64,000 nucleotides of DNA from NCBI RefSeq assembly GCF_017348835.2, contig NZ_CP071375.1; one strand, given 5' to 3'. The notes below the pieces were generated by a model. That model saw only the letters and a program-made list of their open reading frames with translations, did not search any database and had not been told where the DNA came from. The stretch is from Escherichia coli (GTDB lineage: Bacteria; Pseudomonadota; Gammaproteobacteria; Enterobacterales; Enterobacteriaceae). A program made the translations under genes and the position numbers. This document shows positions 19,947-53,886 of this stretch, one piece after another; within the stretch, counting starts at the first letter, position 1; each line of letters begins with the position of its first letter.

Positions 19947-22703
19947 ATGACCAACTACAGCCTGCGCGCACGCATGATGATTCTGATCCTGGCACCGACC
20001 GTCCTTATTGGTTTATTGCTGAGTATCTTTTTCGTCGTGCATCGCTATAACGACTTGCAGCGTCAACTGGAAGATGCCGGTGCCAGCATTATTGAGCCGC
20101 TTGCAGTTTCTACTGAATATGGCATGAGCCTGCAAAATCGCGAATCTATCGGTCAGTTAATAAGCGTACTGCATCGTCGCCATTCCGATATTGTTCGCGC
20201 GATTTCGGTTTATGATGAAAATAACCGACTCTTTGTCACCTCCAATTTTCATCTTGATCCCTCATCAATGCAGCTCGGCAGCAACGTGCCGTTTCCTCGC
20301 CAGCTCACTGTCACTCGTGACGGCGATATTATGATCCTCCGCACGCCGATTATTTCTGAGAGTTACTCCCCCGACGAATCGCCCAGTAGCGATGCCAAAA
20401 ATAGTCAAAATATGTTGGGATATATTGCGCTTGAGCTGGATCTTAAATCGGTTCGCTTGCAGCAATATAAAGAGATCTTTATTTCCAGCGTGATGATGCT
20501 GTTTTGTATCGGTATTGCGCTTATTTTTGGCTGGCGCTTAATGCGCGATGTAACCGGTCCGATTCGCAACATGGTGAATACCGTCGACCGCATCCGTCGC
20601 GGGCAACTCGACAGCCGGGTGGAAGGATTTATGCTCGGCGAGCTGGATATGCTGAAAAACGGTATCAACTCGATGGCAATGTCGCTGGCTGCTTATCACG
20701 AAGAGATGCAGCACAATATCGACCAGGCGACGTCCGATCTGCGTGAAACGCTGGAGCAGATGGAAATTCAGAACGTTGAGTTGGATCTGGCGAAAAAGCG
20801 CGCCCAGGAAGCGGCGCGTATTAAATCCGAGTTTCTGGCAAATATGTCACACGAGCTGCGTACACCACTGAATGGTGTTATTGGCTTTACCCGCCTGACG
20901 CTGAAAACAGAATTAACACCAACGCAGCGCGATCACCTGAATACGATTGAACGTTCGGCAAATAATTTGCTGGCAATTATTAATGATGTTCTCGACTTCT
21001 CGAAACTGGAAGCAGGTAAGCTGATTCTGGAAAGTATTCCATTCCCACTACGCAGCACGCTGGATGAAGTCGTTACTCTGCTGGCACATTCTTCTCACGA
21101 TAAAGGGTTGGAACTGACGCTCAATATTAAAAGCGACGTGCCTGATAACGTGATCGGCGACCCACTGCGATTACAGCAAATCATCACTAACCTGGTGGGG
21201 AATGCAATTAAATTCACCGAGAATGGCAACATTGATATTCTGGTAGAAAAACGTGCGCTGAGTAATACCAAAGTGCAGATTGAAGTGCAGATTCGGGATA
21301 CCGGCATTGGTATTCCTGAACGTGATCAATCGCGCTTATTCCAGGCCTTCCGACAGGCTGATGCCAGTATTTCCCGCCGTCATGGTGGCACCGGGCTGGG
21401 GCTGGTGATTACACAAAAACTGGTTAATGAAATGGGCGGCGATATTTCGTTCCATAGCCAGCCGAATCGCGGTTCAACTTTCTGGTTCCACATTAATCTC
21501 GATCTGAACCCGAACATTATTATTGAAGGGCCATCCACCCAGTGCCTCGCCGGTAAACGCCTGGCCTATGTCGAACCAAACTCCGCAGCAGCACAATGCA
21601 CGCTGGATATTTTAAGTGAAACGCCGCTGGAAGTGGTTTATAGCCCAACGTTCTCCGCGCTGCCTCCCGCGCATTACGACATGATGTTGTTAGGCATCGC
21701 GGTGACCTTCCGCGAGCCGTTAACAATGCAACATGAGCGATTAGCGAAAGCGGTATCGATGACCGATTTCCTGATGCTGGCACTTCCTTGCCATGCACAA
21801 GTCAATGCTGAAAAACTCAAGCAAGATGGTATCGGCGCGTGTCTGCTGAAACCATTAACACCTACGCGCCTGTTGCCTGCCCTGACGGAATTTTGTCATC
21901 ACAAACAAAACACGCTTTTGCCTGTAACCGATGAAAGTAAGCTGGCAATGACAGTCATGGCGGTTGATGACAACCCCGCTAACCTGAAACTTATCGGCGC
22001 ATTGCTGGAAGATATGGTGCAACATGTGGAACTTTGCGATAGCGGGCATCAGGCGGTTGAACGGGCGAAACAGATGCCGTTCGATTTGATCTTAATGGAT
22101 ATTCAAATGCCGGACATGGATGGCATTCGGGCCTGCGAACTCATCCACCAACTCCCCCATCAGCAACAAACGCCGGTTATCGCGGTAACGGCGCATGCAA
22201 TGGCCGGGCAAAAAGAGAAGCTGCTTGGCGCAGGGATGAGCGATTATCTGGCGAAACCGATTGAAGAAGAGCGATTGCATAATTTGTTGTTGCGCTACAA
22301 GCCTGGCAGCGGTATTTCGTCTCGCGTCGTGACGCCCGAAGTCAACGAAATTGTGGTGAACCCGAATGCGACCCTCGACTGGCAACTGGCACTACGCCAG
22401 GCAGCAGGAAAAACCGATTTAGCGCGCGATATGCTGCAAATGTTACTCGATTTCCTGCCTGAAGTTCGCAACAAAGTTGAGGAACAGCTGGTTGGAGAAA
22501 ACCCGGAAGGCCTGGTTGATTTGATTCATAAACTGCATGGCAGTTGCGGCTATAGCGGTGTGCCGCGTATGAAGAATCTCTGCCAACTGATCGAACAACA
22601 GCTACGTAGCGGTACTAAAGAAGAAGATTTGGAGCCGGAGCTGCTGGAACTGTTGGACGAGATGGATAATGTCGCGCGCGAAGCCAGCAAAATTCTCGGG
22701 TAA
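19947..22703 (+). CDS. barA: Hybrid sensor histidine kinase BarA (HAMP, HisKA, HATPase, receiver, HPt)
   Basis: 918-aa ORF; H-box [11 protein letters not shown], receiver [14 protein letters not shown]-terminal HPt. Confidence 0.97.
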
Positions 22704-25636: not shown

Positions 25637-26502
25637 CTTATTGCCCCGCGACAGGTTTCAGCTCGATACGCTTGATATCGCCCACCAGCACCAGGTAGCT
25701 CAGTACCGCGATTAAGGCATGAACACCAACATAAATCAGCGCCCCATTAAACGAGCCAGTCGTGCCAACGATATAACCAATTGCGATTGGCGTGACGATG
25801 CCAGAAATGTTACCGAACATGTTGAACAGGCCACCGGAAAGACCGCTGATCTCTTTTGGCGCGGTATCTGCCATTACTGCCCAACCCAGCGCCCCAATGC
25901 CCTTACCGAAGAAGGCCAGCGCCATAAAGCCGATGATCATCCACTCAACGTTGACGTAGTTGCAGAACACCATCACCATCGACAGCAACATGCCCATTAC
26001 GATCGGTGTTTTACGCGCAATGTTCAGCGATCCCGTGCGGCGCATCAGCCAGTCGGAAATAATCCCACCCAGCACACCACCGATAAAACCACAAACCGCC
26101 GGAACGGAAGCCACAAAGCCCGCTTTCAGAATCGACATCCCACGCGCCTGCACCAGATAAACCGGAAACCAGGTAATGAAAAAGTAAGTCAGGGCGTTGA
26201 TACAGTACTGACCGATATAAACGCCGATCATCATCCGTGACCCGAGCAGCTGTTTGATCTGCCCCCACTTCACGCTGAACGGCACTTTAACTTTGGTGTT
26301 TTGCTGATCCATATTGATCAGCGCGCCACCCGCGGCGATGTACTCCAGCTCTTTCTGATTTACCCCCGGATGTTGATTTGGCTCGTGGATGACTTTCAAC
26401 CAGATAAAGCTGATGACAATCCCCAGACCGCCCATAAAGAAGAAGACGTGAACCGCCCCGGAAATCCTGGAGACTAAACTCCCTGAGAAAGAGGTAAACA
26501 GG

Positions 26503-26829
26503 ATGACTAAAAATACTCGTTTTTCCCCCGAAGTCCGTCAGCGGGCGATTCGTATGGTTCTGGAAAGTCAGGATGAATATGACTCACAGTGGGCGGCAAT
26601 TTGTTCCATTGCCCCAAAGATTGGCTGTACGCCGGAGACTCTGCGTGTCTGGGTTCGCCAGCATGAGCGGGATACCGGGAGTGGTGATGGTGGACTCACC
26701 ACCGCTGAACGTCAGCGTCTGAAAGAGCTGGAACGTGAAAATCGTGAACTGCGCCGCAGTAACGATATCCTTCGCCAGGCTTCCGCTTATTTTGCGAAGG
26801 CGGAGTTCGACCGCCTCTGGAAAAAATAA
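26503..26829 (+). CDS. IS3-family transposase OrfA (HTH DNA-binding, leucine-zipper-like C-terminus)
   Basis: 108-aa [29 protein letters not shown]...; ends at an A6 run (26821-26826), the presumed -1 frameshift site. Confidence 0.9.
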
Positions 26830-27716
26830 TGCCACTGCTGGATAAGCTGCGTGAGCAGTACGGGGTCGGACCGGTATGCAGCGAACTGCATATTGCCCCG
26901 TCAACGTATTACCATTGTCAGCAACAGCGACATCATCCGGATAAACGCAGTGCCCGTGCGCAGCACGATGACTGGCTGAAGAAAGAGATACAGCGCGTAT
27001 ACGATGAAAATCACCAGGTATACGGTGTGCGTAAAGTCTGGCGTCAGTTGTTACGGGAAGGTATCAGAGTGGCCAGATGCACTGTGGCACGTCTCATGGC
27101 AGTTATGGGACTTGCCGGTGTTCTCCGGGGTAAAAAGGTCCGCACTACCGTCAGCCGGAAAGCCGTTGCCGCATGCGACCGCGTAAACCGTCAGTTCGTG
27201 GCAGAACGTCCAGACCAGTTGTGGGTGGCTGATTTTACCTGGGTAAGCACATGGCAGGGCTTCGTTTATGTGGCGTTCATCATTGATGTGTTCGCCGGAT
27301 ACATCGTGGGATGGCAGGTCTCATCATCCATGGAAACAACATTCGTGCTGGATGCACTGGAGCAGGCGTTGTGGGCCCGTCGGCCGTCCGGCACAATCCA
27401 TCACAGTGATAAAGGTTCTCAGTATGTATCGCTGGCCTACACGCAGCGGCTTAAGGAAGCCGGATTACTGGCATCAACAGGGAGTACTGGCGACTCGTAT
27501 GACAACGCGATGGCTGAGAGCATCAATGGTCTTTACAAAGCGGAGGTAATACACCGTAAGAGCTGGAAAAACCGTGCAGAAGTGGAACTGGCCACACTCA
27601 CGTGGGTGGACTGGTATAACAATCGACGATTGCTGGAAAGGCTGGGCCATATTCCTCCGGCAGAAGCAGAAAAAGCTTATTATGCTTCCATCGGAAATAA
27701 TGATCTGGCAGCCTGA
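26829..27716 (+). CDS. IS3-family transposase OrfB (DDE integrase-core / rve domain)
   Basis: 295-aa ORF in -1 frame relative to orfA; ...YGVRKVWRQLLREGIRVARCTVARLM...HSDKGSQYVS...YDNAMAESINGLYKAE. Confidence 0.9.
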   Translation: MPLLDKLREQYGVGPVCSELHIAPSTYYHCQQQRHHPDKRSARAQHDDWLKKEIQRVYDENHQVYGVRKVWRQLLREGIRVARCTVARLMAVMGLAGVLRGKKVRTTVSRKAVAACDRVNRQFVAERPDQLWVADFTWVSTWQGFVYVAFIIDVFAGYIVGWQVSSSMETTFVLDALEQALWARRPSGTIHHSDKGSQYVSLAYTQRLKEAGLLASTGSTGDSYDNAMAESINGLYKAEVIHRKSWKNRAEVELATLTWVDWYNNRRLLERLGHIPPAEAEKAYYASIGNNDLAA

Positions 27717-28629
27717 GTTCACAGATAAAACACTCTCCAGGAAACCCGGGGCGGTTCAGACGTGTGACCAGCCCACTTCATGCGTCAGCCAGCCCATAAT
27801 CGGCGCGAAGATCACCGTTGCGAAGTATTGAGCGGAGTTAAAAATCGACACCGCCGTTCCCCTTTCCTGCGCCGGAAACCAGGCCGCAACAATGCGACTG
27901 TTGCCGGGGAAAGATGGCGCTTCAGCAAGCCCGACCAGGAAGCGCAGAGTAAACAGGGCAACGATAATGCCGAATCCACTAAAGATATCGACGAAGCCTT
28001 GCAGCAAGGTAAACATCGACCAGATAAAGATCGACCAGAAGTAGACGCGTTTTGAACCAAAACGATCCAGCAACCAACCACCAGGGATCTGCCCGATAAC
28101 ATAAGCCCATGAGAAGGCAGAGAACACATAGCCCATTCCCACGGGATCAAGGCCGATATCTTTGGCCATTTCCGAACCGGCAATAGAAAGCGTAGCGCGG
28201 TCGCCGTAGTTGAAGGATGTGACGATAAACAACATCACCACTATCCAGTAACGAGCATTCGTGCGTTTTTCCACACTGCTCGCAGCCTGACTTAAAGAAC
28301 TCATTGTTGCACTCCTGAAAATTCGCGTTAGCCACGCTCACTCTGGACTGCGACATCGCCAGGAAATCAGAGGTGACGTAGGGTGTTTTTTGCCGTTTTT
28401 ATAGGTCGTTCGCCGAATACGGCGCGTGTTTATATCTGGCAATAGCAGTATAAAAAGCGCGCCATAGCGGCTCACCGTGCAACAACACAACATTAATGCG
28501 TTCAATGAGGCCCGATTTTGGCATTAGCCCTGGACGGTGGAATCCACTTCACGGAAATGAAAACAAGAACAAGAAAGGAAGGGTTAAAACGAAGAAATAA
28601 AGAAGAGTATGAAATGGATCGCTTGACTC

Positions 28630-29205: not shown

Positions 29206-29988
29206 TTAGGAACTTATCTCTCCATCCTGACCCGATGGCGCACTGAACTCAACCCTTTCATTTTCAGGAAGCAGACCCCGCCAGCCAAATTGTGATAACG
29301 CCTGCATCCAGGTGTCGTCCAGGCCCGCGTGAATAGTCAGCGGCTCGCCAGTAAAAGGATGCGTCAATGACAACTGACTGGCATGCAGCATTAAGCGCTG
29401 AAGGCCAAAATGCTCAGCACCGCTGCGATTCTGGCGTAAATCGCCATGTTTGCTATCGCCAATAATCGGATGACGCAAATGGGCAAGATGGCGACGGAGC
29501 TGGTGCTTGCGTCCGGTTTTCGGCTCCAGTTCCACCAGGCCGTAGCGCGTGGTCGGGTAACGTCCGGTCGCGACCGGCATTTCTACGGTCGCCAGACCGC
29601 GATAATGCGTCACTGCTGGCTGCGGGCCTTTATCTTCGCGGGCAAATTTATCAGCGATTTTGTCCAGTTCTTCCACCAGTGGATAATCCAGCACCGCTTC
29701 TTCCATCAACCAGCCGCGCACAATCGCATGGTAACGTTTCTGGATTTGGTGCTGTTCAAACTGTTGTGCCAGCAGCCGTCCGGCCTCGCTGGATAATCCC
29801 ATCAACAACACACCAGAAGTTGGTCGGTCCAGACGATGAGCAGTAAAAACATGCTGTCCTATCTGGTCACGCACGGTTTGCATGACCACTACTTTCTCGT
29901 CGCGATCCAGCCAGCTGCGGTGAACCAGCCAGCCGGAGGGTTTATTTACCGCAACCAGCCATTCATCCTGATAGAGTATTTCCAGCAT
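29206..29988 (-). CDS. truC: tRNA pseudouridine(65) synthase
   Basis: 260-aa ORF, RluA-family catalytic motif ([13 protein letters not shown]). Confidence 0.93.
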
Positions 29989-30317
29989 TAGCTCGCATCA
30001 TCCGCAAAAAGAGCATCCAGTTTTTCCAACTCAGTCAGAATAAGCGCGCGTTGCGGATGGTCCGTCGCCAGCGCCATTTCATAATAGGGTGCAACGGCAA
30101 AAGCGCCCGGTAACGGCTGGTTGTTATCTAACAAATCGTGCATTCGTGGGATCAGCACCCACTGCAACCACTCCAGTGGTTCCATGGTGTCCATAAAGAA
30201 CGGTTGGGTACTGTTAAATTGATGCGGCTGGGGTTCATCGTTTCGCCAGTGCTGATGTTCACGCAGTAACGCTTCAAGCGCCTGCAACTGGAGACGAACG
30301 CGGTCATGAGTGGTCAT
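29988..30317 (-). CDS. yqcC: DUF446-family protein
   Basis: 109-aa ORF MTTHDRVRLQLQALEALLREHQHWRNDEPQ...; stop overlaps truC start. Confidence 0.85.
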   Translation of the reverse strand: MTTHDRVRLQLQALEALLREHQHWRNDEPQPHQFNSTQPFFMDTMEPLEWLQWVLIPRMHDLLDNNQPLPGAFAVAPYYEMALATDHPQRALILTELEKLDALFADDAS

Positions 30318-30360
30318 AAAGCAACCTCAATAAGAAAAACTGCCGCGAAGGATAGCAGGA

Positions 30361-30719
30361 ATAAAAAAAGGGAGCACTGTATTCACAGTGCTCCCGGTTC
30401 GTTTCGCAGCATTCCAGCTACTTTTGTTGCTCCCTGCTCATCCTTGACAACTTTTCCTCTGGCCTTGCGGCCAATCGTTCATCCTGAACTATTGCTTCCT
30501 GCTCACACCACCCCGATGTGATACTTCATCCTGAAGTGTCCCTGGCCTTCCTGACCCACCGAATCATCCTGACCGGTTCTCATTCTCCATCCTGGAGGTG
30601 TCCTTTAACGCGTCCTGCGTCATCCTCTTCGCTTCATCCAGAAGCCTTTCCCTGAAACACCATCCTGGTGTGTCCTTCAGAAGTGTCATCATCCTGATGT
30701 TCACTTCGTTGTCTGACTC
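30361..30719 (-). ncRNA. csrB: CsrB small regulatory RNA (CsrA-sequestering)
   Basis: Minus-strand transcript with about 18 GGA-containing motifs (CAGGATG/AGGATG family, seen as CATCCTG on the plus strand), ending in hairpin GGGAGCACTG-loop-CAGTGCTCCC plus U-tract (30363-30395); 5' end approximate. Confidence 0.85.
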
Positions 30720-30938
30720 CCTGTCGACGAAGATAGAATCGTCTTTTTCGCGAAGTCTTACAAGGCGCTTACAGACAATGCCTTAAGGAAAATTTCATAT
30801 GAAAGTTAAGAATTAACAAGCAACATATTGATTTTAAATGAAAATAACGATTCTTATCTTTTTAAGTATTCGCTTATTTCCTGGCGATCTCCTACAGAGT
30901 CTGTAAGAGATCTCTCACAACCAGATGGGGTATTTGGA

Positions 30939-31484
30939 TTACAGAAGAGGCTTAAGTTGATTAAGGAATTCCGCAAGATTTGAGGCTAAATGCGTCCGTT
31001 TACGTGTTCCCAGCGTCTCTTTACACACTTCACCGGAGAGATTACACACCGAGATGACCTCTAACTCTTCTTCCAGCGTCGCGATAAATAGCGTGGGCGG
31101 CAGTTTTAGCCTTTTCTGAGTCACCAGATGACCAATCAGATTTTCCTGCACCCGACGGAAGTCGTCTTCACTCCAGGTTTGCAGCAATGTCAGTTTGATA
31201 TCGCCAAACTGCGCGTGCATATCCCCGGCAAACTGAGTCGTATAAAAGGTATGAATTGTGGGTTGTATCACAATATCAAAAGCGCGTTCAACCGCGTTTA
31301 CATTTTGTTCCCCGGTAAACGGCTGGGGTTGCCAGTATACGGCATCTTCAGTAGTTGAAATAATGCACGGTGAAGGAACGCCGTACAGTTCCTCACTTAA
31401 CGGCCAGCTTTTATGCTCTTCCTGCCACGCATCGCAGTAGCGTGCAGTAAAATCTTTCAGGGCTTGTGCGGTCAAATCGTCCAC
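30939..31484 (-). CDS. syd: SecY-interacting protein Syd
   Basis: 181-aa [42 protein letters not shown]... Confidence 0.93.
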
Positions 31485-48899: not shown

Positions 48900-49105
48900 A
48901 CTTCCTGAGCCGGAACGAAAAGTTTTATCGGAATGCGTGTTCTGGTGAACTTTTGGCTTACGGTTGTGATGTTGTGTTGTTGTGTTTGCAATTGGTCTGC
49001 GATTCAGACCATGGTAGCAAAGCTACCTTTTTTCACTTCCTGTACATTTACCCTGTCTGTCCATAGTGATTAATGTAGCACCGCCTAATTGCGGTGCTTT
49101 TTTTT
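48900..49105 (+). ncRNA. gcvB: GcvB small regulatory RNA (Hfq-dependent, GU-rich R1 region)
   Basis: Divergent from gcvA; begins ACTTCCTGAGCCGGAACGAAAAGTTTTATCGG, contains GTTGTGATGTTGTGTTGTTGTGTTTG, ends at hairpin GCACCGC-ctaatt-GCGGTGC plus T8 (49098-49105). Promoter -35 TTGAGC (48865-70), -10 TATAGT (48888-93). Confidence 0.85.
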
Positions 49106-52064: not shown

Positions 52065-52247
52065 GGGCGAGGTTATCCCTCACCCTAAACGCATAAATGC
52101 CTGATGCGCTACGCTTATCAGGCCTACATAACTCCTGCAATATTTTGGATTTGCATGATTTGTAGGCCGGATAAGGCGTTCACGCCGCATCCGGCATGAA
52201 CAACGCGCACTTAGTCAATAATCAGGATGTGAGGTTACCCCTCACCC
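52065..52247. repeat. Composite REP cluster (BIME-like): two REP units bracketed by two small GC hairpins with near-identical sequence
   Basis: Hairpin GGGCGAGGTTATCCCTCACCC (52065-85); REP GCCTGATGCGCTACGCTTATCAGGC (52099-123); REP GCCGGATAAGGCGTTCACGCCGCATCCGGC (52166-95); hairpin GTGAGGTTACCCCTCACCC (52229-47). Confidence 0.7.
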
Positions 52248-53589: not shown

Positions 53590-53666
<77 letters not shown>

Positions 53667-53699
53667 ATTAAAATTTGATGAAGTAAAGCAGTACGGTGA

Positions 53700-53776
<77 letters not shown>

Positions 53777-53809
53777 ATCAAATTTGATGAAGTAAAAGCA
53801 GTACGGTGA

Positions 53810-53886
<77 letters not shown>

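Follow-up and report, generated by a model that had tools for sequence, protein, structure and literature searches.

The csrB gene in the intergenic region between syd and yqcC of an Escherichia coli chromosome

In the stretch of Escherichia coli DNA analysed here, which is 64,000 nucleotides long and is called the window below, a reading based on open-reading frames would meet an unexplained gap of 621 bp between the stop codon of syd (30939..30941) and the start of yqcC (30317). What does this gap hold, and is the element in it intact? A preliminary description, made from the sequence alone, had put the gap at 620 bp, a figure that the measurement bears out, and had assigned it to the small RNA gene csrB. 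CsrB, a non-coding RNA that sequesters the global regulator CsrA, is a central switch of the carbon-storage (Csr) network, which governs glycogen, biofilm, motility, and virulence. The gap is bounded on one side by syd, the gene of a SecY-interacting protein (30939..31484, minus strand; NF003439, 287 bits), which bears this name in the K-12 and PE164 annotations. On the other side lies yqcC (DUF446, 109 aa; 29988..30317, minus strand), an open-reading frame that is likewise named in the K-12 and PE164 annotations and for which no NCBIfam match was found. The next gene after yqcC is truC (NF008321, 500 bits).

Identity and boundaries of csrB

A scan of the whole window with Rfam 15 placed CsrB (RF00018) at 30360..30719 on the minus strand with a score of 382.9 bits (E 2.2e-111; gathering score 71), and the cmscan match covers model positions 1-356 of 356 and is not truncated. 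The preliminary description had named this covariance search as the test that could refute its csrB call, and the full-length match instead bears the call out. An alignment to K-12 csrB, which it had also proposed, agrees with this result. In the annotation of K-12 MG1655, csrB (b4408) is a 369-nt ncRNA between yqcC and syd, and when mapped onto the window it falls at 30360..30728 with 367 of 369 positions identical, while the whole syd-yqcC intergenic region is identical to that of K-12 at 617 of 621 positions. The K-12 locus has the same neighbors, syd and yqcC-truC-yqcA, with barA nearby, and the K-12 gene has the same 369-nt length, 22 GGA motifs, terminator architecture, and distance to the UvrY palindrome. 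No sequence evidence speaking against the csrB identity was seen.

With boundaries taken from the K-12 annotation of b4408, the gene is a 369-nt ncRNA at 30360..30728 on the minus strand. The coordinates first proposed, 30361-30719, located the gene correctly and missed both ends, as the 3′ end is at 30360 and the annotated 5′ end at 30728. The earlier boundary at 30719 thus falls 9 nt short of the transcript start; this position is where the Rfam model begins and not where the transcript does. The distance of the UvrY palindrome from 30728, given below, agrees with the published distance, providing independent support for 30728 as the transcription start.

The trinucleotide GGA occurs 22 times on the minus strand of the full 369-nt gene and 21 times in 30360..30719, the extra 9 nt at the 5′ end contributing the remaining one, and only twice on the opposite strand of 30360..30719. 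Across the window, the minus strand carries a mean of 4.8 ± 2.5 GGA per 360 nt, and the csrB locus is the window-wide maximum; shuffles with the G/A-rich composition of the region itself gave 12.0 ± 2.7. Of the 27 copies of the longer repeat CAGGA[U/C/A]G that the minus strand of the window carries, nine are at csrB. A dense minus-strand array had been described previously and is confirmed, whereas the number attached to it, about 18 motifs, was an under-count relative to the raw 21-22. Eighteen is the classical count of imperfect repeats in CsrB. The count of 22 GGA has been reported for E. coli CsrB (Vakulskas 2016, PMC5027483).

GGA repeats and a terminator are features of the members of clan CL00106 in general, and a superficial confusion is conceivable in which another member (CsrC, RsmB, or similar), or a chance purine-rich tract, has been mislabelled as CsrB. 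After competition within this clan, however, CsrB is the match that cmscan keeps, at 382.9 bits over the full model, and the 99.5% identity with K-12 csrB and the csrB-specific position between syd and yqcC also argue against another member. The strand specificity of the GGA excess (21 vs 2) speaks against a chance tract. A perfect 18-nt palindrome, TGTGAGAGATCTCTTACA, is present upstream, as is the case only for CsrB and not for CsrC (PMC4682653). CsrC resembles CsrB in having multiple GGA sites that sequester CsrA, in being activated by UvrY, and in decaying through CsrD and RNase E (PMC4682653, PMC5027483), but it differs in locus and sequence, its upstream repeat TGTGAGACATTGCCGATA is only weakly symmetric, and it does not need IHF (PMC4682653). 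No CsrC match was returned by the Rfam scan of the window. A mislabelled clan member or chance tract is refuted by the Rfam match and the K-12 alignment, and we consider it extremely improbable.

These results leave next to no doubt that the region is the chromosomal csrB of E. coli, intact, ordinary, and near-identical to the K-12 copy, and csrB explains the gap between syd and yqcC. It is a known gene, with nothing new about it; its earlier listing as a known element identified the gene correctly and was rated appropriately.

The csrB locus was found in 5425 of 5426 complete E. coli genomes, and the region is 100% identical to that of two pig isolates, PE164 and F2_81. A plasmid collection yielded seven csrB matches, in records of 0.57-5.4 Mb that are all typed as non-mobilizable. 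Three of the seven were inspected and used as orthologues (NZ_LN868944.1, LR134122.1, and NZ_CP129771.1), and each has the normal chromosomal neighbors. A plasmid-borne csrB was rejected on these grounds, and the seven plasmid-labelled records are mis-typed chromosomes or chromosome pieces.

Predicted fold, conservation, and the 3′ decay module

The 369-nt RNA is predicted to form 14 hairpins with a minimum free energy (MFE) of −119.9 kcal/mol (z = −4.4 vs shuffles). In the MFE fold, nine of the 22 GGA motifs lie wholly inside hairpin loops, and in 19 no more than one of the three nucleotides is paired, with mean unpaired probabilities mostly above 0.7. The RNA would thereby show about 20 GGA in hairpin loops and single-stranded linkers. 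A CsrA dimer would bind each of these motifs through one of its RNA-binding faces, and one CsrB molecule would hold many CsrA dimers away from their lower-affinity mRNA targets. We infer this binding and sequestration of CsrA from the near-identity of the gene to the characterised K-12 RNA.

Orthologues of Salmonella enterica, K. aerogenes, and K. pneumoniae were compared with this gene. All three have the gene order queF/syd-csrB-yqcC-truC-flavodoxin, as here, and their csrB genes give full-length CsrB model matches of 326-370 bits, with 81-87% nucleotide identity to the gene in the window; the Klebsiella genes differ in having 24-25 GGA. In an alignment of five sequences from four genera, 19 of the 22 GGA stay in register throughout, and the share of invariant columns is 91% within GGA and 67% elsewhere. 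Some stems in Salmonella and Klebsiella differ from those in the window by compensatory changes, and RNAalifold on the five sequences, a small sample that is supportive only, gave 88 pairs, in five of which both partners have changed in such a way that pairing is maintained. The features that mark membership in the CsrB/RsmB family, namely the model match, many exposed GGA, a terminator, and covariation, are thus all found in the sequence.

The alignment also bears on whether the region might encode a small protein, with the RNA-level signals being secondary. The gap had been called ORF-free; a mechanical search for open-reading frames lists several of 45-71 aa there, among them a GTG ORF of 46 aa (30564..30704, minus strand) and an ORF of 71 aa (30306..30521, plus strand). 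None of these is annotated in K-12 or PE164, and conservation tracks the GGA motifs and hairpin stems, with scattered indels of 1-3 nt that would break the frames. The short ORFs were rejected as coding on the annotation and on this pattern of indels and conservation, and a small-protein gene is the least probable of all the readings considered here.

At the 3′ end of the csrB RNA gene, a terminator scan found an intrinsic terminator hairpin at 30370..30395 on the minus strand, with a 4-nt loop and an 11-bp stem in which seven pairs are G-C, followed by a run of seven U residues (U7) at 30363..30369. This agrees with the strong intrinsic terminator of the preliminary description, and transcription would end at this hairpin and U7, 30395..30363. 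No change in the stem is seen in Salmonella or Klebsiella, and GGA site 22 sits within the hairpin.

Decay of CsrB in K-12 has been described as a cut by RNase E just upstream of the terminator, which CsrA shields and CsrD unmasks (PMC5027483). CsrA sites 20 and 21 reportedly keep RNase E from its entry site (Vakulskas 2016, PMC5027483), and the 3′ module formed by these sites and the unpaired segment controls RNase E entry and CsrD dependence (PMC5027483). In the window, GGA site 20 is at 30431..30433 (minus strand; RNA position 296) and GGA site 21 at 30413..30415 (minus strand; RNA position 314), a numbering consistent with the placement of site 19 at about 286 in that paper (PMC5027483), and both sites are kept in all five sequences compared. 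Between site 21 and the terminator lies the segment AUGCUGCGAAACGAAC (30397..30412, minus strand), which is unpaired in the MFE fold, identical to K-12, and would be the counterpart of the "necessary cleavage site" region for RNase E (PMC5027483). From RNA position 296 through the terminator, the sequence is the same as in K-12 except at stem position 340. The decay module, with sites 20 and 21 beside an unstructured segment upstream of the terminator, is therefore present at the level of sequence. By analogy with K-12, RNase E would begin the removal of CsrB by cutting within the unpaired segment just upstream of the terminator; CsrA at GGA sites 20 and 21 would protect this position, and CsrD would overcome the protection.

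Promoter elements and differences from K-12

An 18-nt palindrome of the UvrY (GacA/SirA) type, TGTGAGAGATCTCTTACA, lies at 30902..30919 on the minus strand, centred at −182.5 from 30728. It is the sole match in the window on both strands and is invariant in the four genera. Zere et al. 2015 described an identical palindrome, centred at −183/−182, to which UvrY binds at E. coli csrB (PMC4682653). The element 5 bp downstream of the palindrome that is described in the same paper, a partial extra UvrY half-site with the sequence TGTAGGAGA, is found at 30888..30896 (minus strand), and Klebsiella has TGTAAGAGA in its position. A putative IHF site, AATCAATATGTTG (30821..30833, minus strand), starts at −105 and matches perfectly the consensus WATCAANNNNTTR, a consensus matched only seven times on the two strands of the window; in the alignment, Salmonella and Klebsiella do not share it. 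A putative IHF site has been placed between the upstream and the promoter-proximal UvrY crosslinking regions (PMC4682653), and the match at 30821..30833 falls where that candidate is located and may be the one drawn there.

Closer to the transcription start, two conserved blocks, CTTAAGGnATTGTC and TTGTAAGA, lie within 30756..30787 on the minus strand, with TTGTAAGA at −35..−28. Their columns are invariant across the four genera, whereas the neighboring AT-rich spacer is not conserved. The stretch contains TGTAAG-like half-sites and lies at the upstream edge of, and partly inside, the published −56..+25 crosslink region (PMC4682653). A second, downstream UvrY crosslinking region known from ChIP-exo overlaps the −35 region (PMC4682653), and judging from position and conservation, the two blocks are probably the −35 region plus this downstream UvrY contact region. 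A scan of 30250..31000 found no consensus sigma-70 promoter for csrB or yqcC on either strand, a result that fits activator-dependent transcription of csrB. In the alignment as a whole, the UvrY palindrome, CTTAAGGnATTGTC...TTGTAAGA, the transcription start GTCGACAGG, and the segment from GGA 20 to the terminator are invariant or nearly so, with one substitution in the last of these.

In K-12, BarA-UvrY drives the synthesis of CsrB and IHF assists; the sensor kinase BarA activates csrB transcription by phosphorylating UvrY (PMC4682653). The barA gene is encoded in the same window (19947..22703, plus strand; NF008318 BarA equivalog, 1623.9 bits, cut-off 890), while csrA, uvrY, and csrD lie outside it. 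In the mechanism proposed here, csrB would be transcribed from the minus strand with a start at about 30728, phosphorylated UvrY at the −182.5 palindrome would activate it, IHF would bend the intervening DNA, and BarA would supply the phosphate for UvrY. This dependence on UvrY and IHF, like the decay pathway above, is carried over from the literature on the K-12 RNA and may be expected to apply here; the BarA-UvrY promoter elements (palindrome, half-site, and IHF consensus) are present as sequences only. Identity, family membership, the count and exposure of the motifs, and the presence and conservation of the published cis elements were computed directly.

The distance from barA to csrB is about 7.7 kb, and the layout is like that of K-12 except for an insertion sequence in gudP, the galactarate/glucarate transporter gene, between them. 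This IS3-family insertion of 1310 bp (26449..27758) splits gudP, which in K-12 is without it. Its terminal inverted repeats (TGAACCGCCCCGG...) are imperfect, a target duplication of 4 bp, GACG, flanks it at 26445..26448 and 27759..27762, and the locus is 1314 bp longer than in K-12. Within it are an Rfam ALIL frameshift pseudoknot (26784..26900) and an IS3 transposase orfB (26829..27716). The element may resemble IS629/IS3411. The insertion in gudP is also annotated in the pig strain PE164. Elsewhere in the window, the Rfam scan placed the GcvB sRNA at 48900..49105 (plus strand, 199 bits), adjoining gcvA, which is its neighbor in K-12 too, three equally scoring tRNA genes with a spacing of 110 bp at 53590..53883 (plus strand), and a short match to the ES036 (CssrF) sRNA at 52120..52162 (minus strand, 46.5 bits vs a gathering score of 37.6).

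Four positions in the intergenic region differ from K-12, and all four differences leave the known motifs intact. Two are in the AT-rich promoter spacer, at 30827, which is a degenerate N position of the IHF consensus, and at 30820. The other two are within the gene. At 30677 (RNA position 52), an A here replaces the C of K-12, changing CAGGAC to AAGGAC at GGA site 3, and at 30389 (RNA position 340), an A replaces G, so that a G.U pair in the terminator of K-12 becomes A-U and the stem is fully Watson-Crick. These two substitutions raise the question of whether this csrB has decayed or changed in function, with a different capacity for CsrA or different termination. Exact 60-mers around the two positions, however, were found in 2220 of 5424 (30677) and 1792 of 5419 (30389) complete E. 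coli genomes, and as both alleles are frequent, these are ordinary polymorphisms. The GGA at site 3 is retained, as are all 22 GGA and every regulatory element. The A in the terminator is shared with Salmonella, both Klebsiella species, and the Rfam consensus, indicating that K-12 is the odd one out, and the predicted stability of the hairpin is −16.6 kcal/mol compared to −16.2 for the K-12 allele with its G.U pair. An unusual or damaged copy was thus rejected, as both substitutions are common E. coli alleles, and we regard an altered csrB as very improbable.

yqcC and the annotation of csrB

The first gene downstream of the intact csrB is yqcC, on the same strand. Its ATG (30317..30315) lies 42 nt beyond the annotated 3′ end of csrB (30360) and 45 nt beyond the U-run, in line with the distance of about 45 nt given in the preliminary description. 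Salmonella and Klebsiella retain this tight co-oriented layout, the ATG following the U-run by 42-57 nt (57 nt in Klebsiella vs 45 nt here). Given a co-oriented yqcC only 42 nt from the csrB 3′ end and a gap with no sigma-70 consensus, a dependence on read-through could follow, in which yqcC-truC-yqcA would be expressed partly through the csrB terminator; we hold this to be doubtful. Directly after the terminator (about 30349..30357), E. coli, Salmonella, and Klebsiella share the conserved sequence TG(C/T)TAT(C/T)CT, which looks like an extended −10 element and could be a promoter for yqcC, the alternative to read-through. In the literature library searched, nothing relevant to read-through of the csrB terminator or to yqcC transcription was found. 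If such read-through did occur, yqcC-truC-yqcA would be under BarA-UvrY control, and a tRNA pseudouridine-65 synthase operon would be tied to the Csr circuit.

In the RefSeq (PGAP) records that were checked, K-12 excepted, there is no feature at csrB, with only yqcC and syd being annotated there. The gene is therefore invisible in these automated annotations although it is present in nearly every complete E. coli genome. The identification matters as annotation only, showing that this strain has an intact csrB with all of the known control elements.
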